Assembly: GCA_963813535.1 (NCBI GenBank)
Contig: CAWEZH010000002.1
Coordinates: 128,001 to 192,000, forward strand
Source of the DNA: an uncultured Chloroflexia bacterium
GTDB lineage: Bacteria > Chloroflexota > Limnocylindria > Limnocylindrales > CSP1-4
Length of the DNA: 64,000 nucleotides
Reading direction: 5' to 3'
This document shows, in pieces, positions 32,185 to 55,958 of this stretch. The translations under genes and the position numbers were made by a program. The notes beneath the pieces were generated by a model, which saw only the letters and a program-made list of their open reading frames with translations, made no database searches and was not told where the DNA came from. Positions within the stretch are counted from its first letter, which is position 1. Every line of letters starts with the position of its first letter.

Positions 32185-33116
32185 ATGGCTCCGCAACAAC
32201 TCGTCTACGTCCACGGCGCCGGGACCGCAGAAGCCGCGCCGCTGCCCTCAAGCACGAGCTCGACATGTCGCTGTTCGGCAAGGACATGTCGACCACGCGA
32301 GTAGCGCACTACGCGAGTGTCCGCTGGCCACCGACCACCGGCGGCACGGGGGTCGCGCCCACGGCCTCCGGTCGCGCTCGACGCACCAAAGCGATCCGCC
32401 GAGCGACCGATCCGGCGCTCACCACCGGTGCAGCCGCCGACGAGATCGTGAACGCCACGCTGCGCGGCCCGTCCGTCGGCTTCGGCGCTGCCGCGCCGCC
32501 CAGCGCCCAGGAGATCGCGCAGGCTAAGAAGCTCGTGCAACAGCTCTACCGGCGCGCCGACCGTGTCGCCAGTCGCTCCGCGGCCCCGACCCCGGGACTG
32601 GCGCTCGGCGTGTCGTTCCCCGATCCGATCTTTCGATTCATCGTCGGCAAGTTCGCCAGCGACGTCATCGACTACCTCTATGGGCCGTTCAAGCACCAGA
32701 TGCAGGTGCCGGTGTTCGACGCGCTGCGAAAGAGCCCGCGACCAAAGGTCATCGTCGCCCACAGTCTCGGCACGATCATCCTGTACGACGTCCTGTCCGA
32801 TCCGGCACTCACTGGCCTCACCGACAACGTGCTCATCACCGCGGGCTGTCCGCTCGGCATCGGCAACGTCCAGAAGCGCCTGCGTAACGGGGCGGCACAA
32901 CCGCACCCGGTGCCAGTCGCGCTCAAGGCCTGGTCCAACTTCGCTGACCGCTGGGACCCCGTCGCCCTCGAGCAGACGCTTCGCGACGAATTCGAGCCTC
33001 CCAAGAACTTCGCGAAGGACGACCAGGTCAACAACCCGGCGCGGGACAACCACGATCTGCTGGGCTACCTCTCGGTCGCGATCGTGCGCGACGCGATCGT
33101 CGCGGCCGCCGGCTAG
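32185..33116 (+). CDS. alpha/beta hydrolase (apparent frameshift near 32230-32260)
   Basis: LVYVHGAG, IVAHSLGT nucleophile elbow, LITAGCPL, DPVA, NHDLLGYL. Confidence 0.8.
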
Positions 33117-33124
33117 AAATCACG

Positions 33125-34885
33125 ATGCGGATCCGCGCGCCGCTCATGATCCAGGACCCGGACATCGCGGTCACGGATATCGGCCGCCACGTCGAAGAGT
33201 GGCGCGGCATCGACGAGGATCATTACCTTGATGGGCCGGTGACGCCCCGGGTTGCCGTCGTAGACCTGGACCCGGACACGGAGGAGCTGGAGCCCGGCGC
33301 GGTATTCGTCCCGCCTCGGCGAAACCAGACGCTCGGCCGCTACCAGGTTCGCACCGACGATCTCTACGCACCCCATTTCATCCAGGTCAGCGTCTTCGCG
33401 ACGGTCCTTCGGACCATGTACATGTACGAGGAGAGCGACACGCTGGGCCGCAAGATCACCTGGGCGTTCGGCGGTCCGCAGCTCCTCGTCATCCCGCGGG
33501 CGGGTTGGTGGCCGAACGCCTACTACGAACGGCGCTCGCGAAGCCTGCAATTCTTCTCGTTCCGGGCCCGCGGCAAGCTCATCCACACCAGCCTCTCGCG
33601 CGACATCGTCGCCCACGAGACAGCCCACGCCCTGATCGATGGGATCGATCCGGACCTCTACGACGCACTCGATCCCCAGTCGCTCGCGCTGCACGAGGGC
33701 ATCGCCGATCTCACTGCCGTCCTGATCGCCTTCCGCAGCGGCAGGCTTCGAAAGGCGGTCCTCGACCAGACCAACGGCTCGATCGAGAGATCGACCCGAT
33801 TCAGCTCGATCGGCGAGGAGTTCGGGCGCGCCATCGACCCGAGCGGCGCGGTCGGCTATCTCCGCAACCTGCTCGACGACAGCAAGCTCGATCCCGACAG
33901 TGATCCGGGGGACGAGCCCGAGGAGCACGTCCTGAGCCAGGTGGTCACCGGCGCCCTCTACAGGCTCATGGTCGACCTCCACCGCGACTACAAGCAGCGC
34001 CTGGCGCAGCGGCGGGGAGAGTCGCAGTTCTCCGTATCGGGTCGTGCGCTGTTCGGTGCCTCAGAGCAGTTCAAGCGGATGATCCTGCGTGGACTCGACT
34101 ACCTGCCGCCTGGCGAGGTCACCTTCGCCGACTACGGCCGGGCGATCCTGGCAGCCGACCAGGCCTCGTTCCAGGACGACACGTGGCGCCGATACATCCG
34201 GAAGGAGTTCGTGCGGCGGGGCATCGTCAAGCGCGCGCGGCAGCTCGACGTCCAGACGAACGTCCCGAACGCAGCCCTCGCCGACATCGACCTGCAGGGC
34301 CTGGTCGACAGCGCGTGGTTGGCCTACACGTTTGCCGAGAAGAACCGCAAGCTGCTGCGGATCCCGAAGGACGCCCAGTTCGAGGTGATGCCGCGCATCA
34401 TCGTCAACAAGCGGTTCCTGCTCCCGGACCAGAACATCGATCAGGCGGCCGCCGTCCACGAGGACACATCCGCCGACGACGATGCCCGGATCGAACCGGC
34501 TGAGCCCGGCGCGGAGATCCCCCTGCCAGTCAAGGAGCTTCTGTTCAAGGTCCGATGGAGTGTCACGGAGGACAACCCGCCGGACCTCGGCATCGCTCCG
34601 AGGCGGCGCATCCAGACCGGAACGACCCTCGTCATCGACTGGGATCGGCGGCTCGTTCGATCACTCCTCGGCCCGTTGGACCTCGAAGCGAGGAAACCGG
34701 CGCGGGACACGATGCTGCGGCGGCTGATGGATCGCGGCCTCCTCCAAGTGACGAGACCGGACGACCCCGACGCGATCCAACAGACCCTCGGGACCGGTGT
34801 CGAGGCGGTGGTGACCGACCGCGTCCTGCGGGTAAGCAGCACGGCGCGGCTGCTGCATGTGGCGCGGGACGTCAGCTATGAGTGA
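33125..34885 (+). CDS. cytoplasmic gluzincin (M4/M36-like) zinc metalloprotease
   Basis: NAYY, DIVAHETAHA, ALHEGIAD, EEH; no signal peptide. Confidence 0.88.
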   Translation: MRIRAPLMIQDPDIAVTDIGRHVEEWRGIDEDHYLDGPVTPRVAVVDLDPDTEELEPGAVFVPPRRNQTLGRYQVRTDDLYAPHFIQVSVFATVLRTMYMYEESDTLGRKITWAFGGPQLLVIPRAGWWPNAYYERRSRSLQFFSFRARGKLIHTSLSRDIVAHETAHALIDGIDPDLYDALDPQSLALHEGIADLTAVLIAFRSGRLRKAVLDQTNGSIERSTRFSSIGEEFGRAIDPSGAVGYLRNLLDDSKLDPDSDPGDEPEEHVLSQVVTGALYRLMVDLHRDYKQRLAQRRGESQFSVSGRALFGASEQFKRMILRGLDYLPPGEVTFADYGRAILAADQASFQDDTWRRYIRKEFVRRGIVKRARQLDVQTNVPNAALADIDLQGLVDSAWLAYTFAEKNRKLLRIPKDAQFEVMPRIIVNKRFLLPDQNIDQAAAVHEDTSADDDARIEPAEPGAEIPLPVKELLFKVRWSVTEDNPPDLGIAPRRRIQTGTTLVIDWDRRLVRSLLGPLDLEARKPARDTMLRRLMDRGLLQVTRPDDPDAIQQTLGTGVEAVVTDRVLRVSSTARLLHVARDVSYE

Positions 34886-36080: not shown

Positions 36081-36134
36081 GCGGACGGCGGGATTGATCC
36101 GGTTCGTCCCGGGACCAACGGAGGAGGAGATCGC

Positions 36135-37223
36135 ATGGCCGGGCAGTTTCGACCACGAGCGGTGTTCCAGTTGCAGCGGGATGCGAAACATCCGATCGGG
36201 TCGCGATTGGGCGGCGTCAACTGCAACCCCACCGCGGGTGCCACGCTCGTCGGCTTCGTCACGTGTGGTGCCAAGCGGACGACGGGTGCCGCTGTACGCG
36301 AGCTTACGAACGATACCGAGGGCGGGACCGTCCTCAGCACCGTCGCTGCAGCACTGCGCCGGGGTTTCGGGGTCGAAATCGACGTCGATACCGGGTCGTT
36401 CGATCGGATCATCAAGGCCCTCGACTCGCGTCGTGGCGTGACGCTCAGCGGGTCCAGCATCGCGACCCGCGGGACGCGGTTCCAGGCCAGCGAGACGTTT
36501 GACGGCAACCATCAGTGGGCCCTGACGGACATCCGCAAGGGGGATGGTGGGCGTCTCGAGATCCTCGTGTTCGATCCCTTGGCTGACGGCCGACGCCGGG
36601 GCATCGCTATTTCGCCGATGTGGATCCCGGTGGGCATCGTCCGCGAGTTCGCGGGCAAGCTCGACCTCAGATCGAAGGCGGAAAAGGCGGCGAAGCGGCC
36701 TCGCCGACCGCTGGGCATCGGTCGGGCGACGTACGGCTTGACGGAGGTCGTCGCCTGCGCCAGCAAGAAGGCACCGGTACCGGGTGTCCGGTTGCGCGCG
36801 GGTGCATCACTCGTGAACGGCCAGGCAGGGCGCGACCGAGTGATCGGGGTGGCCGTCGGGCGGATCCGCGAGCGGCCGACCACGACGTCGGACATCGTCG
36901 GCCGCAAACGTGCCGGCGACCCGTTCCGGGCGTGCCAGCGCATCCGCGGTCAGCGTGTCGCGGGCGACCCGATCTGGCTCGGCGACCGCACGGGCGAGCG
37001 ATGGATGCATGCGTCGTTGTTCAGAGCCATCAAGCAGGAAGGCGCGGAACCCGGGCTCGACCAGGTCGGGGAGGACCCTGAGGCCGCTGCTCTTCCGGAT
37101 GCGGCAGGCGATCAGGGCACCGACGACGAGGTGCTCGAAGGGTTCGAGGACGGCGTGGACGAGCAGGTCGTCGACGAGGTTGCGGCCGAGTCGAGCGAGA
37201 CCGTGACTACCGGTCAGGACTGA
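36135..37223 (+). CDS. putative C39-like papain-fold peptidase with SH3b-like domain and acidic tail
   Basis: NC...GNH...VFDP putative Cys-His-Asp; RIRERPTTTSDIVG...W...WMHASL SH3-like; GGAGGAG RBS. Confidence 0.6.
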   Translation: MAGQFRPRAVFQLQRDAKHPIGSRLGGVNCNPTAGATLVGFVTCGAKRTTGAAVRELTNDTEGGTVLSTVAAALRRGFGVEIDVDTGSFDRIIKALDSRRGVTLSGSSIATRGTRFQASETFDGNHQWALTDIRKGDGGRLEILVFDPLADGRRRGIAISPMWIPVGIVREFAGKLDLRSKAEKAAKRPRRPLGIGRATYGLTEVVACASKKAPVPGVRLRAGASLVNGQAGRDRVIGVAVGRIRERPTTTSDIVGRKRAGDPFRACQRIRGQRVAGDPIWLGDRTGERWMHASLFRAIKQEGAEPGLDQVGEDPEAAALPDAAGDQGTDDEVLEGFEDGVDEQVVDEVAAESSETVTTGQD

Positions 37224-37302
37224 CCGTCGATCGGGTTCCACGGTTGTCGGGGTGGGTACCATCGAACGAGAACGGCCTCGACTGACAGACGGGGGAGGAA
37301 CC

Positions 37303-39093
37303 ATGGCAGACGTCCGAGGCAACCCCTGGGAACACGATCCAGGCCCACCCTCGGGGAGCGGCTGGGCGGAGGTCTTCGCCGATACCCCCAACTATCGCGG
37401 ACTCGGCAACGAGGTCGTCGGGCGCGAAGCGTTTCGCTGGCACCACGGTCCGATGTTCTACCGCGGTCGCCTGGACGGTTCCGCCAAGGTCATGGTGGTC
37501 GGGCAGGAGGGTGCCCAGGACGAATCGCTCGCGCACCGTTCCTTCACCGGCGGGACCGGTGCCCGGATGCAGCATCTGCTGCGGTTCCTCGGTCTCGATC
37601 GTTCGTACCTGTTCGTGAACTCGTTCGTCTACCCGATCTTCGGCCAGTACACGCTCGACCTCCGGAAGCTCGCCCAGGATCCTCGATCGCCGATCGTGAG
37701 CCACCGCAACCGGATCTATGACAAGGCGGTCGTCGATGGCGACGTGCGCCTGGTCATCGCGGTCGGTCGTGCGGCGAAGGAGTCCGTATCCACATGGATC
37801 GAGTCGCACGGAGGGACGGCCCAACCCGAGGCCCTGCACACCGCGACGCTGGGCACCTTGCCGAACCGGGTTCGAGTCGTGGGTGTGGTGCATCCGGGAA
37901 GCGCGTCGGGGGGCTCGACCAGCGCTATCAAGGCTGACTTCGTCCGCGCCATCGGCCGAATCCGCGACTGGCTGCAGGCCGACGCGGGCTGGTTGCCCGC
38001 CGATCCCGGCATGACGCGGAACCTCACCGCATCCTTCCCGTATTCCTCGGCCCCGATCCCGTACCGGGACTTCCCGTTCGGGACATGCCCGCGCCTCGGT
38101 CGGGGCGGGACGTCAAGCAACCGCAGCGACGACCAGCGAGCGATCCGCCTGTTCTCGGCAGCCGGCAAGTACAACGCCGCAGGGGCCCACCTGACCGATC
38201 CGTCGTCGGCGACTGGGACCAACCAGGGGTACGACGACGACCCGGGCGACCTGCCGTATGAGCCGCCGCGCGCCAGTCCGCTCGCCTTCGACGCTGGCCC
38301 GCCGACCAACTTGGCGCGCCTGTTGATGGGGGCCGAGGCGGGCTTCGAGTGGCCTGACTTCGCCTCGCTCGGCGTAACGGCGCACCCGTCGTTCGGCGTC
38401 GGACCGATCTATCGCGGCCGGTTCGGAACCCTGAGCCTCGTCATCCTTGCCGATCAGCGGTCCGCGGACGACACATTCAGCGGCCGAGCGCTCACTGGCG
38501 ACGCGGGTCAACGATTCCAGGGCGTCCTGCGTGCGGCCGGGCTGACGAAGCGCTACCTGGTCATCCGCACGCTGCCCGTCGACACCATGGATCTCAGCGC
38601 GGCCAAGCGCTTGTCGTTGGTCGATCACCCCAAGGTGCGGGCGATGCATCGCGAGCTCCTGAGCCGCGTTCGGTCCGCGAACGGCGGGGTCACCGCGCTC
38701 CTCGCGATGGGCCCCGGCGCCCGGCGGCTCGCCCCGAATGTCGTCCCAGCCGGGCTCGACGTGATCGAGCTCGCAGCGCATGGGGAACCGGGATTCCAGG
38801 CGTCCTGGCAAGCGGCACTGGCGCAGCTCGCGGGGCGCACCTACACCAAGGACGTTGCCAATCCGAGCTTCGATGCCCCGACCACCCGCAGTCAGGTCCC
38901 ACGGATCGATCTGCCCTATGGCACGCCCCGGTGGGTCGGGAGCTCGGGGGATCGAGGCGTACGGCCGATGGACACCGACATCGACAAGCCAACGCCGGAC
39001 TATCTCAAGCTGTTCCTGCCAGCCTGGGTCGCGGGTCTCGCGGCGGCGCCGCTGAGCCCGGCGGAGCAGACCGCGGCCGACCAGCTCAGCTGA
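37303..39093 (+). CDS. protein with two tandem uracil-DNA glycosylase-like domains
   Basis: YRGR...VVGQEGAQDE...FTGGTGARMQ...VHP; second copy YRGR...ADQ...LTGDAGQRFQ. Confidence 0.78.
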   Translation: MADVRGNPWEHDPGPPSGSGWAEVFADTPNYRGLGNEVVGREAFRWHHGPMFYRGRLDGSAKVMVVGQEGAQDESLAHRSFTGGTGARMQHLLRFLGLDRSYLFVNSFVYPIFGQYTLDLRKLAQDPRSPIVSHRNRIYDKAVVDGDVRLVIAVGRAAKESVSTWIESHGGTAQPEALHTATLGTLPNRVRVVGVVHPGSASGGSTSAIKADFVRAIGRIRDWLQADAGWLPADPGMTRNLTASFPYSSAPIPYRDFPFGTCPRLGRGGTSSNRSDDQRAIRLFSAAGKYNAAGAHLTDPSSATGTNQGYDDDPGDLPYEPPRASPLAFDAGPPTNLARLLMGAEAGFEWPDFASLGVTAHPSFGVGPIYRGRFGTLSLVILADQRSADDTFSGRALTGDAGQRFQGVLRAAGLTKRYLVIRTLPVDTMDLSAAKRLSLVDHPKVRAMHRELLSRVRSANGGVTALLAMGPGARRLAPNVVPAGLDVIELAAHGEPGFQASWQAALAQLAGRTYTKDVANPSFDAPTTRSQVPRIDLPYGTPRWVGSSGDRGVRPMDTDIDKPTPDYLKLFLPAWVAGLAAAPLSPAEQTAADQLS

Positions 39094-39095
39094 CC

Positions 39096-42000
39096 ATGCC
39101 CGCTGCACCGCTTCCCCGCTATGGACTGCGCGGGCGGGTGGTCACGATGAACGCAGTCCGCGACGTCGTCGCGGACGGCATCGTGTGGGTCGCCGACGGC
39201 TCGATCAGCGACGTGACACCGGCGAACCAGACGCCGGCCGCCCACGCCGGGTCTCCGGTCGTCGCCACGGCCGGCACGATCTACCCGGGCATGATCGAGC
39301 TCCACAACCACCTCGCCTACAACACGCTGCCGTTGTTCAGGATCCCGCGGCTCTACACGAAGCGAGAGGAGTGGCAGGGTACCCGCGGGTACCGACGGTA
39401 TGTCAGCGGCCCCGCCGGGGTCGTCGCGTCGCTGCCGGACTTGATCCGGGCGACGATCCGCTACGTCGAGTGCAAGAGCCTGATCGCGGGCACGACGACA
39501 TCCCAGGGGCTGACCCTGCGCGCGGCCCCGATCAAGCACCTCTACAAGGGCATCGTCCGCAATGCCGAGCAACCGGACGCGGCCGGCCTGGACGCGGCGC
39601 GACCCAAGATCGGCGACGTGACCCCGGAGGGCCGTGAGTCGTTCCGCAAGTCGCTGGCTGGCAAGGGTGCCCGGATCGTCCACCTGGCCGAGGGGCTTCC
39701 GACCTCGAAGGCCCACGACCACTTCACCGACCTCCAGGCGCCCAACGGCACGTGGGCGATCGGGCCGAAGTTCGTCGGCATCCATTCGACGGCTCTCACT
39801 CCGTCCGACCTCGCCATCGTCGACCAGCTGGGCGGATCGATCGTCTGGTCGCCGTTCAGCAATCTCGCCCTGTATGGCGGGACGACCGACGCCAAGACCG
39901 CCATGGATCTCGGGATCAAGGTCGCCCTCGGCTCTGATTGGTCGCCGACCGCGAGCAAGAACCTGCTTCATGAGCTCAAGGTCGCGCGCATCTGGAGTGA
40001 CGATCAGCAGCTCGGCTTCACGGATCGCCAGCTCATCGAGATGGTGACCGTGACGCCCGCGGAGATCCTCGGCTGGCACGGTCGTCTGGGCTCGCTCGAG
40101 CCTGGCAAGCTCGCCGACATCACGGTCGTTTCCGGCAAGACGGGCGAGCCGTATCGCCATCTCGTCGACGCGACCGAGTCGGACATCCGCGTCGTCGTCA
40201 TCGGTGGGATCGCCCGCTACGGGACGCCCGCGATGCTGGCGAGACTCAGCCCTGTCGATGAGCAGGCCGACGTCGCCGGCAAGCCTCGGGCGTTCCATCT
40301 CGACGTGCACGATCCCGATCCGGTCCTGGGTCCCATGGGACTCACCGACGCGACCGCGACCCTAGCCGATGCGCTCGCGCACATGCCCGAGCGCGCCGCG
40401 GCCATCGGGTCCGTCGAGCTCGGTGTCGTTGCCGCCCAGGCCGTGGCCGGCGCGGACGCGGACGAGCGCTGGTTCCTGGAACTCGACCAGCCACCCATCG
40501 CCGGCGTCTCGGCGACCCTCTTCGACGGCATCGCCCCGGCATTGCTGGACGTCGTGATCGGCGCCGAGAGCTTCGCGTCGATCGCCATTGCCCTCAAGCT
40601 CGATCCCCTAGCGACCGAAGGCGACGACGCGTTCTTCGACATGCTGGCCAACCTCGAGAACCTCCCGGCAGTCCTGCGGGACACGCTGCCGGGCCGCTAC
40701 GGCGAGGTGCCGCGGGCTCCCACAGAGGGGGTCGGGCTCGAGGACGATGACCTGGCGATCGCACCTCTACCGCTGTCGGAGTTGCTCGAGCGTGCGGGCG
40801 ATCTGACCCTCGCCGATCGACGGCTCATCGTCCAGCAAGCGATGGTCCTGCTCGACCAGGCCTACGTCCATCTGCCGATGAAACGGGCGAGGTACGCGGC
40901 TGATCCGCTGCAGCGCCTGCGACTGATGGCGCACCGGCTTGAAGCTCTGGCGCCGACCGACGAGCTCGGCCCCGAGAGCCTGTTCCATGAGGAGCTCATC
41001 GAGATCTTCACCGCCCTTCGTGACCTGCACACCCACTACGTCCCGCCCGAGCCGTACCGGTCGCACACGGTGTTCCTGCCGTTCCTCGTCGAAGAATGCA
41101 CGCGGGCGGGTCGGCTGCAGTACCTCGTGTCCAAGGTCGCCCACGGAGCCGAGCTCGACCCGTCATTCGCACCGGGGGTGGAGGTGACCCACTGGAACGG
41201 AACGCCGATCCGACGGGCCATCGAGCGCAATGCCGAGAATCAGAGCGGAGGCAACCGGGCGGCTCGGATGGCACGCGGGCTCGACGCGCTGACGATCCGC
41301 ACGCTCGGCCGCACAGCGCCACCGGATGAGGACTGGGTCGACGTGGCCTACCTGACCCCAGAGGGTGGCGAGGGACTGGTTCGCACCCGCTGGAGCACCT
41401 ATCAGCCGCTCGAGCCGTCGCCCTTCGGGGATCTCGAGCAGGCATTCGCCAGTGCGGTCCCGGTCAGGTCCGGCAATCGGGGCCGGCTCGGCGCGCTCGG
41501 TGTCGACGACCAGACCGCGACCGTCAACCTGGTCCGGCGCGACCTCTACGCTCGAGGCTGGCAGCGGACGGCAGCCTGCCGGGTCCGACGAACTGGTCAC
41601 CGAGCTGCCCGGGATCCTGCGCGCAAGGATCAGGGGGACGAGTGCGGGGGACGTCCTGCACATGCGGATCTTCACGTTCGTGGTCCCGGATCCCGGGGCG
41701 TTCGTCCAGGAGTTCGTGCGCCTCGTGCAACTCAGACCCAGCGTCGGCTTGATCGTCGACGTCAGAGGCAACGGCGGCGGCGACATCCGCGCTGCGGAGC
41801 GCCTGCTGCAGGTCATGACGCCCCATCCGATCGGACCCGAACCGACGCAGTTCATCGTCAGCCCATTGGTCCGTCGCCTGTGCATGGCCAACCAGGGTGG
41901 CCCGATCGACCTCACGTCCTGGGCGCCCTCGGTCGTCGATGCGGTGGAGACCGGTGCCACCTTCTCGACTGGGTTTCCGATCACGTCGGCAGTGGACGTG

Positions 42001-42648
42001 AATGACCTCGGCCAGGGCTACTACGGTCCGGTCGTCCTGATCACGGATGCCCGCTGCTACAGCGCCACGGACATCTTCGCCGCCGGATTCCAGGACCACG
42101 ACATCGGGCGGATCGTCGGGGTCGCCGAGCGTACAGGTGCCGGCGGAGCGAACGTGTGGACGCACCCTCTGCTCCGGGCGCTGCTACCCGACCAGGACAA
42201 TCCGCTCAAGGAGCTTCCGAGACAGGCATCCTTCCGCGTGGCGGTACGCCGCACGACGCGCGTGGGGTCGCATGCCAGCGAGCTCCTCGAGGACCTGGGT
42301 GTCTTCGCTGACACGGTGCATGCCATCACGGACGCCGATCTGCTCGAGGACAATCGGGACCTGATCGAAGCCGCCGTTGCCGCGATGCAGGGGCGCGCGA
42401 CGAGGCGACTGGTGGCCGACGTGTCGCCGGCGGGCGATGGCGTGACGATCGACGTGGCCACGACCAACCTGGACCGGGTCGATGCCTATCTCGACGGTCG
42501 CCCCGTTGCTTCCGAAGACGTGCAGGACGATGAGTGCACGTTCGTCCTTCCGCACGCGATGATCAGCAACGGCGGGGAGGTGCGGCTGGAAGGGTTCCAA
42601 GGTGGCACGCTGAGCGCCGCGCGGCGACTCATGATCCCGATCGGATGA
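39096..42648 (+). CDS. amidohydrolase fused to S41 peptidase (apparent frameshift near 41560)
   Basis: PGMIELHNH, HLAEG, GIHS, WSPFSN, ALGSDW, GKLAD; then LRDLHT, DVRGNGGG, YSATDIF, TGAGGAN. Confidence 0.8.
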
Positions 42649-42683
42649 GGACCGTCGACCACCGCGCCGACCTGATGGGGGCA

Positions 42684-43022: not shown

Positions 43023-43067
43023 CGATCACACGTTCTGCCGGACCACGGGACGCTCGGAGGATAGGAC

Positions 43068-45024: not shown

Positions 45025-45040
45025 CGGCAAGGAGCGTCCC

Positions 45041-46531: not shown

Positions 46532-46534
46532 CCG

Positions 46535-48902
46535 TCAACCGGCCTCCGGCTCCAGCCGCATGGCCGGGATGGCCGAAGAACTGGTAGGCCATGTAGGTCG
46601 ACGACGTCGTCTCGGGGGTGTCGCGGAATGCGGCGCGCTCCGTGCGCATGATCTCGGCGGGTGCCTCGCCACGCATCGCCCGCTCGTAGAAGCGGATGGC
46701 GATGTCTCGAGCGAGTCGGTCGTCGATCGACCACAGCGGTGCGATGACGCCTGCTGCGCCGGCGAACAGGAAGGCCGCCGCCAGACCGGCATGATCGCCG
46801 AGGAGTTGGCTGCCGCGGCCGACCTGGCATGCGTTCAGGAAGACGAACGGATGGCCGCGCAGCGGGATCCCCTTGACGGCCAGGGGATCGAGGGCAGAGC
46901 CGTCGACGAGGATCAGGCCATCCCTGGCCTCCTCGGCCTCGTAGGTGCCGTGCACGGCGAAGTGGATGACATCGGCGGCCGGACGCCCCCTCAGGAGGTC
47001 GAGGATGCCGCCGATCGTGGCATCCACCGGCATCCCCTCGTAGATGCGCACGATGTCAGCGGCCTCGGCCTCCGCCTCGGCAAGGCGCTGCCAGCCTGGC
47101 AGCTCGTAGACGCCCGATACGGCGGCGACACCCTGGACGGCCACGCTCATGGGCGGCGGGAGGGCGGGCCGCCGCTGGCCGAGGACCCAGCGCCCGACCG
47201 TCGCCTGGGCGGCAAGGAAGGGCGGGAGGTCGGGATCGAGCGGCGGATCCACGACGGCGAGCTCCCACGGGACGTACGGCTCGGCCGAGAGGAACAGGAT
47301 GGACGGCGGCCGGGCGCCATTCCGTGTCGCGATCTTTGACAAGGCGTTCCAGAACTCGATCGGCAGCTGCTCGGCGATGGTCAGCCCGATCCCGCGCAGG
47401 GCGACGAACTGCGTCGGACGACCCTCCACCTCCTGCATCTCGTCGACGATCCGACGGAGGTCCGCCGCAGGATCGCCGCCGATATCGATACGGATGGGGG
47501 CGTCCGGCATGTCGATCGTCGGATCGGCCGCGAGCAACTGGACGAGGAGGCCACCGCTCGCCTCGGATTCCGCACGCTCGATCCGTACGGTCAGGTCGGG
47601 CGCCACCTGGCCAGCCGGCAATGACAGGTCGACGCCGGGGGCAGGTGGCTGGGCCGGAGCCGACGCCAGGAGATCGGCCGACCGGACCAGGGCGACCGAA
47701 CGCACGGCGAGACCGATCGGATTGCCGTCGATCGAGTACATCGCGCGGATCGAGGTCGACATGACCGGTGCAACCTGGGCATCCGGCACGAGCTGGATCG
47801 TCACGGACGGGTAGGGGGCCTCCGCTGTGACCGGCAGGTCGATCCGCCAGGACGCGCCGGCGTCCGCGAGCCGGAGGCCGTCGGCAACGAGTTGGATGGT
47901 CATCGTGTACGCGCCGACGCTCGATGGCGGTCGGTGGAGCGCCTCCCCGACGACGCGTGCGTCCGGGCGGTCGGCGAGCCCCACGACGAGATCGAACGGC
48001 TGCTCGGCGACGACGGCATCCGGACAGGACAGCCGGGCGTAGGTCGTCCGCGGCGGATCAGCCTCGCTCCCGATCGTCGCGCCGCCGGCGCCGATCGTGG
48101 CACCGGGCCCGACGGCTTCGGGCTCAGGCACGGTCGTCGGCCCGGCGGGTCCACCGGGGCTTGGCGGGGGGCTTGGGGGGCGTGCGGCGGGCGGACCGGC
48201 TGCCGCTTACGGCCGCGCTCGGATGCCGCCTGGGTCAGGCCGCCGACGACCTGGTTGAGCACCCCGCTGATCGCCCCCGGGATCGCCGTCCAGAGGACTG
48301 CCGAGGTCGGCGTGATCCCCGTGATGCCGGCCTGCTGGGCGAACAGCAGGAGGCCGATCCCTATCACCACGCCACCCACGACGGCGAGCACACCGTTGCG
48401 GCGCCCCACAGTCAGGAGCGCACGGAGCGCCATGAGGACGCCGACCACGATGATCCCGATCGCCACGAATCCGGCCGGGGTCCCGAGCGGCGAGCGGCCG
48501 GTCACGTTGACCCAGCCGTGGACCTGGCAGACATCGGTCGCCGCGGTGACTTCGTACAGACCCGACCCGAACCGCGCGTAGTCGGAGACGGGAAGCGTCT
48601 CCGGACCATTCGGTGGTGGGGGCGATCGGCTCGTCGGCGATCGTCCAGGTGGTCGGCCAGACGCTGATCGCGATGGTCGCCCGGGTCACCGGTTCGAGGG
48701 ACTGGCCGAACACCCGTGCCACGGCATCGGCGTCGATCGGGATCGCCCGATCCGGACTGTCGGCATCGCCGAGGGAGTGCCGGTCGATGAAGACGACACA
48801 CTGTCCGATCGTCTGGGCACTGACCGGCGCGGAGAGGATCATGACGATGGCCACGCCGAGCAGGAGAGCGGCGGCGGACCGCACGCGGGGACGGGGCCGC
48901 AT
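46535..48902 (-). CDS. probable single membrane-anchored CHAT (caspase-like) protein: signal peptide, ectodomain, 3 TM, Pro linker, beta-sandwich, CHAT (several apparent frameshifts)
   Basis: CHAT motifs VPWEL, IHFAVHG, FLNACQVG, APLWSIDD, AYQFFGHP; upstream ORFs 48902-48207 and 48505-47900 give signal and TM segments running into a Pro-rich linker with no clear intergenic gap. Confidence 0.7.
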
Positions 48903-48918
48903 CAGCTAGGCATCGGCG

Positions 48919-51270
48919 TCATCGCCAGCTCGGGTCGATGCTGTCTCCCCCTAAGGACTTTGTTAGGTCTTCTTCCTTCCCGGTGGCCAGAACACGCACC
49001 AGGATGTGCCACTCGTCTCCGACGCGGCGGTAGAAGGCGATCCGGTCACCTTCGGGCGAATAGACGGGACCGCCCTCGTCGGCCGAATCGTCGGTGATTC
49101 GGCTCTCCTCCCTCGTTTCGACGTCGATCGACCAGATGTCCCGTCTCGCGCGAGGCTCGTTGCGCGTGAACACGAGTCGCCCGCCGTCGGGGTGCCATCT
49201 CGGGTTGCGGTCGACGGTACCGCCGGACGTCAAAGGCTCGGGATCGCGACCTGGTACCCAGATGTAGATCGATAAGACATCGTCATTGCTATCGCGGTTC
49301 GACGTGAACGCCATCCGCGCGCTATCCGGGTCCCAAGCCGGTGAGCTGTCATCGGCGCCTCGTTGCCCCACGACCGGTTTCGGTAGACCAGCCCTGAGCG
49401 AGGAAACGCGCCAGATGTCGTTCAGCTGCTTGTTCGTCTCGTCGCGGTCGCTGTTGAAGTAGATGAACTTGTTCCGTGCGAAGTCCGGGACGCGGTCGTC
49501 CGCAGGGCCACTCGTCATCGGGGTCTGATTCCCACCATCCTTGTCCATGGTGTAGATGTCACCGGTGCCGTTGTTGATCCGCGTGAATGCGATGTGCGTC
49601 CCATCGGGCGACCACCTCGGCCACCGGTCCGGAACGCTGTTATCGGTGAGCCGGTCCGGCTTGAGGGTGTCCGGATCGATGAGGTAGATCTCGGAGTCCT
49701 CGCCGTCGGTACCGTCCGGGTCGAACTCGAACAGGATCCCCGTTCCGCCCGTCGGTGGAGCGATGCTCGCTGACGCGGAAGCGTCGCTTGGGGGACCACC
49801 CGTCGGTTGGGTATCCGATGCCGAGAAGGAGGCGGATGCAGTGCCGGAGCCTGGGCTCGCGCTTGCCCCGCCCCCGCCTCCGAAGATGTTGACGGCCAGG
49901 AGGAGCACAAGCAGGACGGCTCCGCCGCCGGCCGCGAGGATCGCGATCGGCCGCCAGGGCGGCGGCGGCGGTGGCGGCACCGGCGTGGGACGCTCAGGTT
50001 CCGGTGCTTCAGGCTTCGGAGGTTTGAATAGCTCCTCGAGTTCATCCTGGCTGAGCTCGGGGACTGTCTCCGGTGGCTCCGGTTCGGGAGCTTCCGGCTC
50101 GGGCGGCGCCGGTGGTACGGCGGTACCAGTATCGGCGGCGGGGGCGCCTCGACCACTGGGGCCGCCGCGACGTTGAACAGCACGCCATCCGGTGTCTGGA
50201 GGTACAGGACCGGCGTGCCCCATTCCAGCGTGTCCTCGAAGGCGGTGGCGAGACCCTTCCGTGCCTCGGTGAGCGCCGTGTCGACCGGGATGCCCCGCGC
50301 GACCGCGCCATAGAACGATCGGCTCAGTTCGATCGCGGCCTCATCGGTGATCTCGTACTGCATCGCCACGACGGCCGGAGTGCCCTTGCGGACGAGCGTG
50401 CCCGCCGTGCTCGAGAACACGTCCGTGACGTCGCTTCGACCGGTGTCGCACGCGTTGAGGACAGCGAGGCGAAGCGGTTCGTGGTCCCCGAGGATGCGTC
50501 CGAAACTCGTGGCCCGCTTGTAGTCGGCCTTGCCGTCGGGGCGGGCGAAGGCAACGATGCCCTCCTTGCGGTTCTCGTCGAAACCGCCGTGGCCGATGAA
50601 GTGGAGGATGTGCCAGGGGCCCTCCCACAATGCCTCCTGGAAGTCCTGCCACGTCTGCCCTGGGATCCAGGTGAGCTCGATCAGGCCCTTGGCCTGTATC
50701 GACTCCATCGCGGCGGTGAGACGGGTTCGCTCTCGCTCCACATCCAGCCCGTCGAGGTCCGAAGGACTGACCGCGACCGCCAGGATGCGGATCGGCGGCG
50801 TCACGAGGAGCGGCTCCATGCTCGACGGCAATCGGGATGTAGCGGACCAGCGGCGAACCGGTCGAGAGCGTGACGAAATCGCCGCGAACCGGGTCGAAGA
50901 GGTACTCCCACGGGAGCGCCGCGAGTTCCGCGTCGTCGCACCGGAACTTGATCCGCATGCCGGACTGCTGGTGCTTTGCCTCCTGGCGGCTCGCCTCGTA
51001 GCGCGACAGGACGTCGCCAGAGAACAGTGCGGTCCACAGTTCCTGGCCGAACTCCTGGACCGTGCGGCTCTCCGGTGATGAGATCCGGCGGCGCGTCCCG
51101 CTCGAGCGGAGGAGCGCGATCTGGAGGGCCTGCAGCCGGTTGGTGAGCGTCGGCTGGTCGAACGGGAAGCGCATCGATGACGTCGCCTCGCCAGCCGGCG
51201 ACCGCACCTTGACGGTGTACGACCCCGCTTCGCCGCCAGTGACATCGATCTCGAAATCGAGGTACTGCAC
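48919..51270 (-). CDS. CHAT (caspase-like) domain, Pro linker, TM, TolB-like beta-propeller (apparent frameshifts near 50825 and 50140)
   Basis: YLDFEI..., LPWEYL, LHFIGHG, VLNACDTG, VVAMQY, WGTPVLY; then TM and WSPDG/YSPEG PD40 repeats. Confidence 0.82.
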
Positions 51271-51370
51271 TGGTCGCCTTCCCCGCGCGCCCGATGTCAA
51301 GGCTACCCCGGGTCGCAAGCAGATCCGTTACAGGGGCGGTGCTATCGTGGCCACTCAGCGAGGTGGAGGC

Positions 51371-53377
51371 ATGCCTGCGGACGGATCCGGCTCCACGTCC
51401 TTCGTCGTCATCCGGACCGATTGGTCGGTCCTGACGGCCCTCCGGGCGCTCGACGCGACTGACGCGACCCACGTGATCATCGCGCACCACGGCGATCGTG
51501 GCGACGAATACCACCTGTTCACGGCCGACGACATCTTCGCCGAGCTCCAGACTCATCCGACCGAGGCCAACCTCACCTCAGTGCTGCCTTTGGCCGAGTG
51601 GCCGCCGACGCCGACGATCGCGCCGGGCGATGCGATCGGCGATCGGACGATGGCGGTCGTCCTCGATCGTGGCCGCGCGGTCGGTTTCATCGATCGCAAC
51701 GCCCCGAGCGTTCCAGGCCCGACGGCAGAGACCGTCCAGCCGGGTGATGCCGGCGGCCCCGGTGGGTGGACTGGCGAGGAGGTCGTCGAGCCGGTGCGAC
51801 GTGGCGGTGGGCACCGCGCGAAGCCGCCCGCATCGGCCGGCGATGGCGAACCTGTCGCTGCGAATGGCGGACCCGACGCCGAGGATGGCGGGACCGAGCG
51901 ATCGCTCGAGGCGGAATTTCCTGACTCGGTCGTGGTCGACACGGTGGAGTGGCTGCTGGTCTCGATCGTGAACGCGAAGCCGACAGCGTCGGGTCTCGCC
52001 ATCGAGGTCGCGGCGGGCGAATCGATCGACGTCCTGGTCCAACCGCGGCGCGGGTTCAGCGTGGAGGGTGACGCTCAGGGCACGCTCAAGGTGCCGGCCT
52101 CCGGCGAGAGCCTGCCGCTCCAGTTCAAGGTCAAGGCCCTCGACGAGGGAAAGGGCCTGATCCGCGTCCTGGCCTTCCACCTCGGCGAGCCGCTCGGCGT
52201 CATCACCCTCGAGCCGACGGTGAAGGCCGCGTCCAGGAGCCGGGCTCGCGGACGGACGACCTCGGCGCCTGCAGCGAGGAAGGGCCAGGCGCTGACGGCG
52301 CCGAGCCCGCAGGTCCCGGACATGTCGTTGTTCATCGAGGAGCGCGAGGCCGGCGGAGCCCTCGAGTTCGTCATCCGCCTGACCGCCACGGACCCGGCAC
52401 TCGACCTGAACCTTCGTCCGTTCGGGCCGTTCCGTCTCGAGGTCGAACCCGCCGAGTTCTTCGGGACGTTCTTCCAGGAGATCGACGAGCTGCCCCTGGC
52501 CACGAAGGAACAGCGCGAGGTCGCCGAGCGACGGTTGGCGGCCAAGGGTGCGTACCTGACCGAGTCCCTGATGCCCCCGGAACTGCGTGAGGCGCTCTGG
52601 CTGGTTCGCGATCGGATCGCCTCGGTCATCATCCAGTCCGAGGAGCCCTGGATCCCGTGGGAGCTCTGCCGCCTCATGGGCCGTGACGGCGATCGGGTGA
52701 TCGAGGGTCCGTTCCTGTGCGAAGCCTTCGCGGTCACGCGCTGGTTGCCCGGTGAGGGGTTCAAGCGCCCCCTCCGGCTCACCAACATGGCCCTGATCGT
52801 CCCGGCCGATTCCGGCCTGCCGCTCGCGCCCGAGGAACGCGACTTCGTCCTGTCGCTGGCCGGGGACGGTCGTGCCGTCACGGCGATCGATCCGAAGTTC
52901 GCCGACGTACAGGACGCGTTCGCGGCCGGCGTCTACGACGGCTGGCACTTCACCGGGCACGGCGCAGCGCGCGATTCGAACCCGGATCGTTCGTCGATCA
53001 TCCTGAGCGGCGAGGAGTCGTTCACGCCCGAGGACCTCAGTGGCCAAGCCGCGAACCTGGGCATCCCGCATCCGCTGATCTTCATCAACGCCTGCCAGGT
53101 CGGCCGCGGCGGGATGGGCCTGACCGGTATCGGTGGCTGGGCGCGACGCTTCGTGCAGACCGGGGCCGGCGCGTTCATCGGGGCGTACTGGTCGGTCTAT
53201 GACGTGTCGGCCTTCGCCTTCGCCAAGGAGGTCTATGCGCGGCTCCTGGACGGGATGCCGATCGGTGATGCGGTCCGCGAGGCACGCGCCAAGGTCCGTG
53301 AGGATGGTGACCCGACGTGGCTCGCCTACACCGTGTTTGCCGATCCGCTGGCCACCGTCGAGTCCGGACCGAGCTAG
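51371..53377 (+). CDS. soluble CHAT (caspase-like) protease with CBS-like N-terminus and beta-sandwich domain
   Basis: IPWEL, WHFTGHG, FINACQVG, FIGAYW, WLAYTVFADP; GGAGG RBS. Confidence 0.88.
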   Translation: MPADGSGSTSFVVIRTDWSVLTALRALDATDATHVIIAHHGDRGDEYHLFTADDIFAELQTHPTEANLTSVLPLAEWPPTPTIAPGDAIGDRTMAVVLDRGRAVGFIDRNAPSVPGPTAETVQPGDAGGPGGWTGEEVVEPVRRGGGHRAKPPASAGDGEPVAANGGPDAEDGGTERSLEAEFPDSVVVDTVEWLLVSIVNAKPTASGLAIEVAAGESIDVLVQPRRGFSVEGDAQGTLKVPASGESLPLQFKVKALDEGKGLIRVLAFHLGEPLGVITLEPTVKAASRSRARGRTTSAPAARKGQALTAPSPQVPDMSLFIEEREAGGALEFVIRLTATDPALDLNLRPFGPFRLEVEPAEFFGTFFQEIDELPLATKEQREVAERRLAAKGAYLTESLMPPELREALWLVRDRIASVIIQSEEPWIPWELCRLMGRDGDRVIEGPFLCEAFAVTRWLPGEGFKRPLRLTNMALIVPADSGLPLAPEERDFVLSLAGDGRAVTAIDPKFADVQDAFAAGVYDGWHFTGHGAARDSNPDRSSIILSGEESFTPEDLSGQAANLGIPHPLIFINACQVGRGGMGLTGIGGWARRFVQTGAGAFIGAYWSVYDVSAFAFAKEVYARLLDGMPIGDAVREARAKVREDGDPTWLAYTVFADPLATVESGPS

Positions 53378-53398
53378 GTCCGGAGCTGGCCCGACGCG

Positions 53399-54202
53399 TC
53401 AGGCGGGCCGCCGGCGCTCCTGGAGGACGTGGAACGCGGCCATCGCGACCGTGAGGAAGATCAACCCGCCGATGTATGAGCTGACGGTCCGCCCGTTCAG
53501 TTCTCCATAGAAGAGGGCGGCCGTGACCAGAAGGGCGACGCCGTTGACGATGAACAGCCGAGCCGCCGTGCGGATCTCGTCCCAGTCGCGAGCGAAGGCC
53601 ATGGTCCCGCACCAGACCGACCAGCCGAGGAACCACGCGGCGACGATGCGCGCGTCCAATGGGTTGAGCTCCCAAGCCCAACGGTGCGCTGCGAACTCGG
53701 GGTTGATCAGGAGGAGCAGGCCATGCATGAGCAGCAGCCCCGTCACGAGGACGAGGAACCGCTTGAACCACAGGAGGATGGGGCCTCCGCTGACGGGGGC
53801 CTCGGCTCGCATGATCCCGCGCGGGATCAGGTAGATCATCACCACCGGCTCGAAGATGTAGAGGATCACCCAGATGTGGGCCGTCGGCGGCGTGAACTGT
53901 GACCAGGTGAATTCGTCGATGTGCCAGAACGTGGCGAGCAACAGCGTGCCGGTGAAGGCGAGGTTGCCCCACACGATCCAGCGGAGCCGGATCCAGTCCG
54001 CCTGGCGGGCGACATTGAGGAAGAACAGTGTCCGGAAGATGTAGCCCGCGCCGATGAAGGCTTGGGCGTAGCGCGGCTGGACGTCCCACGCAAAGTATTC
54101 GGGCACGAACTGGGGGAACACGAGCATCCACACGGCGAACCACGCGGCCGCGAGCGCGCCGAGAACGCCCCAGAGAACCTGTGAGCGAGGTGGCCAGCTC
54201 AT
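53399..54202 (-). CDS. multi-TM membrane protein with internal duplication
   Basis: About 8 hydrophobic segments; FAWDVQP..AQAFIGAGY repeated as WAWELNP..ARIVAAWF. Confidence 0.75.
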   Translation of the reverse strand: MSWPPRSQVLWGVLGALAAAWFAVWMLVFPQFVPEYFAWDVQPRYAQAFIGAGYIFRTLFFLNVARQADWIRLRWIVWGNLAFTGTLLLATFWHIDEFTWSQFTPPTAHIWVILYIFEPVVMIYLIPRGIMRAEAPVSGGPILLWFKRFLVLVTGLLLMHGLLLLINPEFAAHRWAWELNPLDARIVAAWFLGWSVWCGTMAFARDWDEIRTAARLFIVNGVALLVTAALFYGELNGRTVSSYIGGLIFLTVAMAAFHVLQERRRPA

Positions 54203-54209
54203 CGAGGCT

Positions 54210-55031
54210 TCAACGCTCGACATCGATCGTGAAGCTGGCCGTGTCGAACAGCCATTCCTTCGGGCGACCGAACAGCCCGGCCTCGCGAACCCAGCACGTG
54301 ATGCCGATCCGTAGTTGTTTCGTGGCCTTGGGCACGAGCAGTGTCTGGAGCAAGGCCTGGTGCCCGGCGATCTGCTGGTCCTGGGCGTAGAGGCTCCACT
54401 CGGCGCCGCCATAGCCGTCGCCGGGGCCGGAGATGACCTTGGGCACGGAGACGGTGAAGCTGATCGACAGCTTCGCGTTCTCATTGATGCTCGCGCCGAC
54501 CTTGGCCGCGGTCAGGGTCACGCCGGGCACGGTGCTGATCGCGGCCTGGAATTCCTTCGGCACCTCGAGCGATCCGTCGAGGCCGATGTCGACGCTCGCC
54601 TCGGCCCCGACTTTGGCGATGTCGAGCAGCTCGGTCGACGGTTGGACGTCCACGGTGTCGGCCTGGACGTCGAACAGCTCGACCTTGTAGCCCATCCCCC
54701 AGACCTTCGCTGGCTTGCGGCCGGGAGCCGGCTGCGCGGTCACCCCATGCGACAGCAGCACCGGGAACTTCCGCCCGAGTCCGGCCACGATCATCGGGTC
54801 GGGGGTCTTCTCGGCGAGCTTCCACAGGCGGCGCAGGTCGATCGCCCGCGGCGCCGGCATCGCCAGGCTGAACGGCGCGTTCGACGGTAGAGCACGCGTC
54901 GCCTCGTCACCGCCCCGCCGGACCGGACCCGCCGCCTTCAGGGCGTCGGCGGCCATCTCCTTGAGCACGCCGTCCTCGACGTCTTGTGGGTTGCCTTGCG
55001 CCTCGAGGGTCCGCGTTCCCCGCTCCGCCAT
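54210..55031 (-). CDS. beta-rich hypothetical protein with amphipathic beta-hairpin
   Basis: GGAGGAG RBS; KVGAEASVDIGLDGSLEV...KVGASINENAKLSISFTV; N-terminal GPVRRGG. Confidence 0.72.
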   Translation of the reverse strand: MAERGTRTLEAQGNPQDVEDGVLKEMAADALKAAGPVRRGGDEATRALPSNAPFSLAMPAPRAIDLRRLWKLAEKTPDPMIVAGLGRKFPVLLSHGVTAQPAPGRKPAKVWGMGYKVELFDVQADTVDVQPSTELLDIAKVGAEASVDIGLDGSLEVPKEFQAAISTVPGVTLTAAKVGASINENAKLSISFTVSVPKVISGPGDGYGGAEWSLYAQDQQIAGHQALLQTLLVPKATKQLRIGITCWVREAGLFGRPKEWLFDTASFTIDVER

Positions 55032-55928: not shown

Positions 55929-55958
55929 GGCGTCTGCCTGGCGGGTAGCCTGTCGGGC

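Follow-up and report, generated by a model that had tools for sequence, protein, structure and literature searches.

Does a run of proteases from several catalytic families, encoded beside putative hydrolytic effectors, form a single proteolytic cascade or a set of separate systems that happen to share a locus? The question is raised by a cluster of 14 genes (c, d, e, f, g, h, i, x, j, CHAT1, CHAT2, CHAT3, o and p) at positions 32,185–55,034 of a 64,000-nucleotide stretch of DNA from an uncultured Chloroflexia bacterium (GenBank assembly GCA_963813535.1), which we refer to as the window (G000:C2:128001-192000). The host genome comprises 3.28 Mb in 3 contigs with a guanine-plus-cytosine (GC) content of 69%, and related loci carry titles of Chloroflexota and Candidatus Limnocylindria/-ales metagenome-assembled genomes (MAGs). 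A sequence-only reading of the same DNA had proposed one sensor, zymogen cascade and effector system with dedicated inhibitors, acting inside the cell and corresponding to no named system. Judged by gene order and content across relatives, the cluster is best regarded as a strain-variable stack of separable modules rather than one cascade, and two of its module types appear to be undescribed. The explanation that we consider rather likely, if far from assured, is a chromosomal array in a soil Limnocylindria-type genome, variable between strains, of modules for conflict or cell suicide that are gated by proteolysis, with new protease–effector pairings, as in the systems of Kaur et al. (eLife 2020, PMC7159879) and Evans et al. 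(bioRxiv 10.1101/2025.11.14.688446). The candidate novelties are a thermolysin-like gluzincin (d) with two candidate zymogens, namely the alpha/beta-hydrolase c and the hydrolase e of the metallo-beta-lactamase (MBL) fold; a pair composed of a gluzincin (j) and a small predicted plug protein (x); and a pair composed of a CHAT protease and the beta-sandwich protein p.

Modular organization among related genomes

Genomes of relatives and the loci fetched for comparison are designated by G and L numbers, respectively. The sister genome G024 is syntenic with the window at 80–95% identity, and a clean 5.4-kb indel removes positions 37,229–42,665, containing genes g and h; the stretch 55,155–56,440 is also missing, which includes a DUF2807 gene (q, 55,173–55,928) lying just outside the cluster. 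The window order c-d-e-f-g-h-i-x-j has counterparts in relatives that read c-d-e-f-i-x-j, c-f-g-h-i-x-j or c-f-i-x-j, and because d-e and g-h were gained or lost independently in close relatives, we regard them as separate cassettes. In G005 the parts are scattered, with the uracil-DNA glycosylase (UDG) gene located beside the amidohydrolase gene, c beside an S41 peptidase gene, and CHAT1 beside a Peptidase_C14 gene. Likewise, c-d-e, x-j, UDG-amidohydrolase and a hydrolase–CHAT fusion with p each occur alone in other genomes. The expectation that the genes would co-occur elsewhere was thus borne out for the parts (c-d-e, x-j and the block with CHAT1-3) and not for the whole cluster as a unit.

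A single multi-tier cascade, in which membrane CHAT proteases would activate metallo- and serine proteases and these in turn the effectors c, e, g/h and p, appears doubtful. It draws on the dense packing of the relevant genes: the only three matches to PF12770 (CHAT) in the genome all lie inside the cluster, and both thermolysin-like genes of the genome do so as well, because the j-family profile matches only j, d and the i/x open frame, the last through its X domain alone. The clustering looks like more than coincidence, for the X-domain profile also matches only x and j in this genome, and p is present in a single copy. In favour of the cascade, L017, L019 and L026 all retain the block i/x-j-CHAT1-CHAT2-CHAT3, although the flanks of L017 and L019 differ, the UDG-amidohydrolase pair turns up in new arrangements, beside CHAT3 (L020) or 12 kb away from CHAT1 (G005), and the fusion of c to CHAT in other genera joins both ends of the cluster. 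By tblastn, 12 of 19 Limnocylindria-type loci around j contain CHAT1, 9 contain CHAT3 and 8 contain CHAT2, a number of the others being short contigs, and among the remaining 61 j loci a CHAT1 match occurs in one only (L038). Apparent CHAT open reading frames (ORFs) beside j in L021, L024, L055 and L062, suggested by BLAST clustering, were dropped as antisense ORFs overlapping j, and one in L044 was dropped for lack of a Pfam match. Against the cascade, close relatives do without d-e or g-h, every module is encountered by itself in other genomes, p and c differ in distribution (7 and 16, respectively, of the 401 genomes of the class, those with c all in one family), and cleavage of one protease by another would have to be assumed; the single-system claim of the sequence-only reading was not supported. 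A layered network restricted to the conserved core (c, f, i-x-j, CHAT1-3 and o-p), in which envelope-sensing CHAT proteins would act on X-plugged, leaderless metalloproteases and these on three unrelated executioners (a lipase-like hydrolase, an MBL nuclease and p as a new intracellular, leukocidin-like pore former), is similarly doubtful; if real, it would amount to a bacterial counterpart of initiator and executioner tiers, assembled from proteases of five classes.

Gene models were derived from third-position GC, from scans with Pfam, NCBIfam and PADLOC, and from comparison with relatives. The gene content given by the sequence-only reading is real, with 14 genes counted where about 15 had been claimed, its coordinates were accurate at both ends, and its family assignments mostly agree with the Pfam, NCBIfam and PADLOC results. 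Pfam confirmed the S41, MBL, UDG (in tandem) and amidohydrolase domains as well as three CHAT domains above the gathering threshold with His and Cys motifs. Two gluzincins, d and j, were corroborated by HExxH and a downstream Glu, with an M4/M36 fold for j. Some assignments stood only in part: the metzincin-like protein (i) and the X-domain protein (x) are encoded separately, the former recognized by its motif and sub-threshold matches; the C39-like nature of f is indicated by Atlas neighbours with no match to a hidden Markov model (HMM); the amidohydrolase and S41 peptidase, listed as two proteins, are both present and form a single fusion ORF in relatives; and the alpha/beta-hydrolase c is sub-threshold in Pfam with a triad conserved in its family alignment.

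At least seven apparent frameshifts were detected in the window, affecting c and h and, twice each, i, CHAT1 and CHAT2. Short-read contigs from four other soil or permafrost runs, aligned at ≥88% identity, contain one base fewer than the window at positions 41,575, 44,455, 48,600 and 50,833, and the missing base at 48,600 was seen in all four runs. The sister genome G024 carries frameshifts in the same genes at different positions. Single open frames were found in better-looking assemblies, including CHAT1 of 847 amino acids (aa) and CHAT2 of 815 aa in L019, an S41 protein of 683 aa in G005 and an amidohydrolase–S41 protein of about 1431 aa in L015 and L031; in G024, CHAT1 is one 718-aa ORF. 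As a rough gauge of error at limited coverage, the essential gene rpoC falls into two frames here and rpoB is whole. The two rpoC frames (G000:C2:72566-76733, outside the window) meet around C2:73752-73762, likely owing to a single-base assembly error. No RNA run was listed that covered 41,400–51,300, and the DNA runs there had shares ≤0.15. The frameshifts are probably assembly indels and not marks of pseudogenes, and because they look like assembly errors, the genes were treated as intact in the organism.

Protease modules c-d-e and x-j

Gene c (32,185–33,116, plus strand) encodes a lipase-like alpha/beta-hydrolase of about 308 aa beginning with MAPQQLVYVHGAG, which was reconstructed from homologues in G024, G341 and G005 across three frames, with a frameshift near 32,225. 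The match to Pfam Abhydrolase_6 is sub-threshold (8.5e-4), and the family alignment (A5) displays an invariant HSLG ... D ... H triad, together with two variable Gly/Ala-rich loops that flank a conserved helix and an invariant Arg pair at about position 65 (R65/R66). Among the genomes with homologues of ≥44% identity whose neighbourhoods were examined, c was situated beside a peptidase gene in 9 of 9, the neighbour being d in five, an S8 peptidase in two (3e-45 and 5e-43), f in one and an S41 peptidase in one. Four more distant c-like genes (35–39% identity) had no obvious peptidase neighbour in their ORF lists, which were not Pfam-scanned. In the window, c adjoins the gluzincin gene d and lies 18 kb from CHAT3; in L031 and L091 it is directly followed by f, and G318, G235 and L138 encode fusions of c-like domains with CHAT. 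Elsewhere in the host genome, a frame of about 690 aa (G000:C2:1073990-1076062) with a weak match to the c profile (1.4e-06) may represent a second, fused c-like gene. In G005, a TIR-NB-ARC-TPR (STAND) gene comes after those for a c-like hydrolase and an S41 peptidase (L012:5719-11722), and in G217 a MoxR-type AAA gene (bpMoxR 3.8e-16) is located about 4 kb downstream of a c–S8 pair (L134:9744-10859).

Gene d (33,125–34,885, plus strand) encodes a thermolysin-like gluzincin with the motifs HETAH ... EGIAD. It is a paralogue of j (31% identity; j-family HMM 5e-28), both bearing HExxH and a downstream Glu; it gave no match to the Pfam profile, and its thermolysin-like assignment is based on these motifs and on paralogy. 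An X domain suspected by eye in d was not found by the X HMM. Gene e starts at 34,857, overlapping the end of d, and extends to 36,080 on the plus strand; the d-e pair recurs in five genomes. The product of e is an MBL-fold hydrolase with the metal motif HEHLDH (HxHxDH), a Pfam Lactamase_B match above the cut-off (8e-07) and long inserts between the MBL motifs, and it is a candidate gated pro-nuclease. Its best PADLOC match is a model named LmuA (PDLC03854, 6.5e-18), with local matches to Avs1a and RTasMBL, and in NCBIfam it matches Avs1a (5.7e-10; 38.5 bits versus a cut-off of 420) and ComEC (2.6e-07) at scores well short of their cut-offs. G024, G087, G127 and G341 retain the c-d-e triad, which spans three genera. 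The triads of the second genus are 54–60% identical; G087 adds a second d'-e' pair, e is truncated in G127, and the triad of G341 has a divergent c. MBL genes directly adjoin x-j in L019, L021, L022, L027 and L029. In the mechanism that we propose, protease d would cut both c and e and thereby switch them on, as caspase- and trypsin-type proteases do for known zymogens. An adenylate cyclase–NB-ARC protein is encoded 3 kb from the triad of G087 (L127:13773-16892).

The second module contains j (45,041–46,531, plus strand), whose product has the motifs HEEGH ... HEAFGD and its own C-terminal X domain ending in ...RVGFSHRH (X HMM 2e-5). The protein has 258 homologues of about 490–515 aa, none with a family name. 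Its AlphaFold2 (AF2) model (predicted local distance difference test, pLDDT, 89; predicted TM-score, pTM, 0.91) was matched by Foldseek to M4/M36 structures, namely vibriolysin, LasB, thermolysin and the M36 fungalysins (E 3e-7 to 4e-6, TMt 0.5–0.66), as well as to the protealysin precursor 2vqx (E 4e-6), with H140, E141, H144 and E167 as zinc-site residues. The Peptidase_M36 score of 16.9 bits is below the curated threshold of the profile (23.3). From their motifs and profiles, j and d form a distinct family without a name within the thermolysin-like gluzincins. The X domain corresponds to the last ~110 residues of j, with a conserved tail of the form ...TH-E...G-R-R...R-x-G-F/Y. It was found at the protease C-terminus in 64 of 80 loci around j homologues, and a second X-domain ORF was located ≤2.5 kb from the j homologue in 71 of the 80, convergent just past its stop in 59, upstream in 10 and downstream in 2; a contig edge truncates three of the nine loci without a partner. 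The loci bear titles that name, among others, Acidobacteriota, Planctomycetota, Proteobacteria, Streptomyces, Gemmatimonadales and a Sphingobacteriaceae MAG. A partner consists of X alone (100–200 aa) or of a HAD-like domain plus X (~300 aa), most partners being HAD–X fusions. Among 1.84 billion representative proteins, X gave 539 matches at E ≤ 1e-3, and in all of the 150 best it occupied the extreme C-terminus; neither X nor x matches a Pfam family. On this comparative evidence, x-j is a widely conserved pair of a protease and its neighbour with a common C-terminal X domain.

In the window, the partner is the 165-aa protein x (44,527–45,024, plus strand; X HMM 1e-26), whose start overlaps the stop of i. 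The complex of residues 1–352 of j with the X domain of x was modelled with our own alignments, and reached ipSAE values of 0.92, 0.93 and 0.89 over the runs versus 0.01 for the best of three controls, with a partner pLDDT of 77–78 and at least 69% of contacts shared between runs. In the model, Phe124 of the x fragment (in RRTGF) abuts H140, E141, H144 and E167, and residues 123–127 of x are placed along the j edge strand N109–D113 (GDDLNAFY motif). Thermolysin-type enzymes favour a bulky hydrophobic residue after the scissile bond. Because the Phe sits at the zinc site and agrees with this preference, we infer that x, and likewise the ...RVGFSHRH tail of j, may serve as a plug or first substrate of j; x and the protease's own tail would then occupy the active site as inhibitor or first substrate, with the conserved aromatic of the Gly-Phe pair at the cleavage position. 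The proposal of dedicated inhibitors agrees with the prediction that the small protein x plugs the active site of j.

The same arrangement could be read as interbacterial toxin–immunity cargo, with j (and d) as delivered toxic proteases, perhaps through contractile injection, and x as an immunity protein. Protealysin and emfourin, for which such a role has been proposed, offer a precedent, protealysin being described in PMC9505478 as an intracellular M4 protease with a 1:1 active-site inhibitor, and the predicted position of x in the active site of j is compatible with this role, as are Baseplate_J and tail-sheath genes within 10 kb in L019 and L103. These genes (L019:225-4659 and L103:15529-17067; Baseplate_J 1.3e-12, tail sheath 1e-11) lie near the x-j/CHAT block and near a hydrolase–CHAT fusion with p, respectively, and may belong to contractile injection loci. 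We nevertheless regard cargo as improbable: no contractile or secretion genes were found among the window ORFs scanned, j carries X in cis, which fits latency better than immunity, and most partners are HAD–X fusions, which would be odd for an immunity protein.

Gene i (43,068–44,527, plus strand) precedes x and encodes an N-terminal domain followed by a snapalysin/metzincin-like zinc peptidase, indicated by the motif HETGHIFGCPDEY and by sub-threshold M12, M7 and snapalysin matches; frameshifts were placed near 43,500–43,540 and at 44,455. It forms a single frame in L015–L017 and L028, and its stop at 44,525–44,527 is in another frame. A metzincin–X fusion was considered and rejected because five close relatives, including L028 (presumed short-read), shift frame at the same point. 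It is further disfavoured by the base missing at 44,455 in short-read contigs and by the length of X-domain proteins, none of the 150 best exceeding 326 aa. L017 is the one exception, with a single frame of 642 aa.

CHAT proteins, p and the remaining genes

The three CHAT proteins exceed the Pfam cut-off of 24 bits with scores of 84.3, 78.9 and 65.7, and they contain the motifs HFAVHG...LNACQ, HFIGHG...LNACD and HFTGHG...INACQ, respectively; we take the His and Cys of these HFxxHG ... NAC motifs to be the catalytic dyad. N-terminal and transmembrane (TM) segments were called by a crude hydropathy scan and not by SignalP. CHAT1 (46,314–48,902, minus strand; Pfam CHAT 1.3e-23; frameshifts at ~48,150–48,220 and 48,600) contains a signal/anchor segment, an outside domain of ~110 aa, TM segments and CHAT. 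In the homologues from L019, G005 and G022 used for the TM scan, a basic N-terminus is followed by a hydrophobic segment ending in A-x-A, the ~110-aa domain, two more hydrophobic segments and CHAT. The homologues end near 46,540, while the window frame runs to 46,314. CHAT2 (48,919–51,354, minus strand; CHAT 5.9e-22, PD40 6.2e-26; frameshifts at 50,833 and ~50,090–50,115) comprises an N-terminal domain, CHAT, a Pro-rich linker, a TM segment and a PD40 beta-propeller. It is a single protein, as the intact 815-aa homologue of L019 has both CHAT and PD40, with the TM segment at 483–515. By this predicted topology, CHAT1 and CHAT2 are both anchored in the membrane and expose domains to the outside, with which they would sense at the envelope. 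In G005 (L011:16084-19270) and G022 (L013:6800-10084), the CHAT1 homologue (808–854 aa) is directly followed by a Peptidase_C14 caspase-domain gene of 246–274 aa (5e-19 and 2e-20), a pair that is absent from the window.

The outward-facing domains correct the description of the system as intracellular, which fits d, i, j, the S41 peptidase, f and p, all without an N-terminal hydrophobic segment, and fails for CHAT1 and CHAT2. They also invite an explanation by envelope remodelling, development or nutritional proteolysis, in which the hydrolases would be ordinary metabolic enzymes. The signal/anchor of CHAT1 and the outward propeller of CHAT2 agree with it, as do an M14 carboxypeptidase and Rce1-like proteases encoded upstream and the metabolic flanks. 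However, d, i, j, the S41 peptidase and f do not have the leaders that such a role would favour, the MBL protein e resembles defence-type or ComEC-type nucleases, and the patchy presence in species of one genus, along with the logic of fusions and neighbourhoods, points to conflict modules, so that housekeeping proteolysis is an unlikely account of the cluster.

CHAT3 (51,368–53,377, plus strand) is cytosolic and contains a TCAD7-like region, DUF7363 (2.2e-09) and CHAT (6.3e-18). The TCAD7 match (8.7e-05) reaches 23.1 bits, just under the cut-off of 24; the start was inferred from L017, the frame being open from 51,062. The inferred starts of the divergent CHAT2 and CHAT3 genes (51,354/51,368) are about 14 bp apart or overlapping, which leaves no room for an intergenic promoter. 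The CHAT domain of CHAT3 is the closest window paralogue of the hydrolase–CHAT fusions (34–40% identity). Its convergent neighbours are o (53,399–54,202, minus strand), encoding a multi-pass membrane protein with five TM-like segments in the hydropathy scan and no Pfam match, and, upstream of it, p (54,210–55,034, minus strand), encoding a 274-aa beta-sandwich protein. The arrangement of p-o convergent with CHAT3 occurs in five genomes of this genus, and o was found with p only in close relatives. The p family (~270 aa) has 52 homologues. Outside the genus, every one of the 10 loci recovered (8 from metagenomes, together with G318 and G235) has p 40–150 bp downstream of a fusion of a c-like hydrolase with CHAT. 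At E ≤ 0.01, p matched no family of PADLOC or Pfam, and there was no PADLOC gasdermin match. The AF2 model (pLDDT 71) presents a beta-sandwich with a low-confidence insert of alternating polarity at 143–192, and a leukocidin was an Atlas neighbour (0.86). Its neighbourhood makes p a well-supported partner of CHAT, and from its model it is no more than a candidate pore former, possibly leukocidin-like; as a CHAT-associated candidate effector, it would be cut by CHAT3 or its fusion relatives, with membrane damage as the result. In G235, two papain-family (Peptidase_C1) genes are located directly behind p, one with DUF346 repeats (L103:4231-8031).

The remaining cluster genes are f, g and h, all on the plus strand. 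The 362-aa product of f (36,135–37,223) had no Pfam, NCBIfam or PADLOC HMM match. Its language-model (Atlas) neighbours are the Peptidase_C39_2, C47 and C70 clusters (0.94, ~145 shared features), which we take as a lead only towards a possible C39/C47/C70-like papain-fold peptidase. Gene g (37,252–39,093), not present in G024, encodes a tandem protein of the UDG superfamily, family 4 or UdgX-like (Pfam UDG 8.9e-09; TIGR03914 9.6e-09, below cut-off), and a single-domain homologue in G005 aligns to both halves. Gene h (39,096–42,648; one-base frameshift near 41,575) encodes an amidohydrolase similar to nucleobase deaminases (Amidohydro_1 2e-20) fused to an S41 peptidase (7.3e-14; 52.1 bits versus a Pfam cut-off of 24), whose best NCBIfam match is CPAF, far below its cut-off; the two domains form one open frame in L015 and L031 and two genes in G005.

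The flanks are ordinary, with genes encoding TetR, PPDK, NDH2, M14, a histidine kinase, glycerol kinase, Rce1-like proteases, an ECF sigma factor and an MFS protein. Being metabolic, and free of tRNA genes and, among the ORFs scanned, of mobile-element genes, they do not establish the region as a defence island. In G024, unrelated sequence takes the place of a 1.9-kb stretch that holds Rce1-like genes (28,963–30,891), so that the surroundings are variable too. Farther away, 23 kb upstream of the cluster, a 961-aa AAA_16-TPR-LuxR (MalT-like) regulator with a weak BrxC/D-like N-terminus is encoded at 6,152–9,037. That unrelated accessory genes simply piled up in a recombination hot spot, sharing only CHAT paralogy, would agree with the clean cassette indels, the replaced neighbouring stretch and the uneven 80–95% identity, and is very unlikely because the same pairings recur independently (gluzincin with MBL, c with peptidases, CHAT with p).

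Relation to known proteolysis-gated systems

The claim that no named system has this composition did not survive comparison with the literature, in which alpha/beta-hydrolase–caspase, protease–MBL pro-nuclease and membrane caspase modules were published between 2020 and 2025. Kaur et al. (2020) describe alpha/beta-hydrolases that are invariably found together with caspase domains. The main text of Evans et al. (2025) reports that the LcHydrolase zymogen is cut twice by LcCaspase, and it describes, as does that of the nuclease–protease study in Science (2025, PMC12799240), gated MBL pro-nucleases paired with trypsin- or caspase-type proteases. Neither main text mentions a metalloprotease partner, the word thermolysin does not occur in that of Evans et al., and a literature search returned no paper on a thermolysin-like/MBL anti-phage pair.

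Several observations weigh against an array of proteolysis-gated conflict modules. The cleavage and toxicity steps are ones that we infer for every gene here, and c was likened to LcHydrolase, and e to the gated-nuclease clade, by description and layout; the family alignment of c shows no conserved R-then-G motif of the kind cleaved in LcHydrolase. For p, Foldseek ranked leukocidin-family pore formers first, with weak scores (TM-score 0.25–0.31), and a VIA search gave no clear fold, the leukocidin Z value being tied with those of cohesin-type and generic beta-sandwiches. Of 80 solved complexes, 58 attained the mark of the complex-modelling tool, as did 2 of 110 mismatched pairs, and these counts apply only roughly to runs with our own alignments, such as that of x and j. 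Synteny between x-j and the three CHAT genes is restricted to one bacterial class, in which common descent could account for part of it. Regarding the setting, PADLOC recognized no complete system among the 18 ORFs scanned, in line with the expectation of the sequence-only reading, and gave domain-level matches only; no NTPase or other classical sensor was found among the window ORFs scanned, nor were integrases or transposases in general Pfam scans of these ORFs, and the window has no tRNA gene.

If the modules operate as proposed, several consequences would follow. Proteolysis-gated death effectors have lately emerged as a major principle of prokaryotic immunity, so far only with serine and caspase-type proteases, and the locus suggests an extension to thermolysin-like zinc proteases. 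The x-j module points to an undescribed, phylum-spanning pair of a protease and a plug with a predicted Gly-Phe tail at the zinc site, and p nominates a new family of CHAT-associated effectors. Moreover, multi-protease 'islands' in soil MAGs may be stacks of small modules, which matters for their annotation.

The closest likeness is to the modules of Evans et al. In both, the genes for a lipase-like alpha/beta-hydrolase and for an MBL hydrolase have a protease gene as neighbour, and the alpha/beta-hydrolase is fused or adjacent to a CHAT protease in relatives of our locus. The product of c is of similar size, with a layout compatible with two cuts, and a small non-enzymatic partner (p here) lies behind the CHAT protease. 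In contrast, the neighbouring protease is thermolysin-like here (for c also S8, S41 or C39-like), d is flanked by two candidate zymogens, a fused sensor is absent, and p, a beta-sandwich protein of 274 aa, corresponds neither to Pepco (117 aa) nor to EACC1. The nuclease–protease pairs of the Science study (canu; PMC12799240) resemble d-e in the ComEC- and Avs1a-like similarity of e, its inserts and its operon with a protease; they differ in having a trypsin or caspase in place of a zinc gluzincin, and in our pair the protease is upstream of the MBL gene and overlaps it. Likewise, e shares the MBL fold, the metal motif and an adjacent protease with the HamM/CanC/VcMBL type, whose partners belong to the trypsin, caspase or S8 classes, unlike d. 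The systems of Kaur et al. (PMC7159879) have in common with the window caspases with alpha/beta-hydrolase neighbours, TM-bearing caspases, a TCAD7-like protein such as CHAT3 and multi-protease clusters from soil. They differ in components, since no MoxR, vWA or VMAP genes were found among the window ORFs scanned in a test for vWA-MoxR-VMAP ternary systems, iSTAND and EACC1 are also absent from the window, and the TCAD7 match is sub-threshold. Protealysin and its adjacent inhibitor emfourin, which binds the active site 1:1 according to PMC9505478, are the closest described counterpart of x-j, which they parallel in that j is a leaderless protease of thermolysin fold with an adjacent small protein predicted at its active site; x differs in having no Pfam family, in its homology to the C-terminal domain of j itself, and in belonging to partners that are usually convergent and often fused to HAD. 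Leukocidin-type beta-pore-forming toxins resemble p in the beta-sandwich core and the alternating-polarity insert and differ from it in that p has no signal peptide and weak scores. Bacterial gasdermins are encoded next to proteases, and p, beside its caspase-like protease, shares that arrangement with them.

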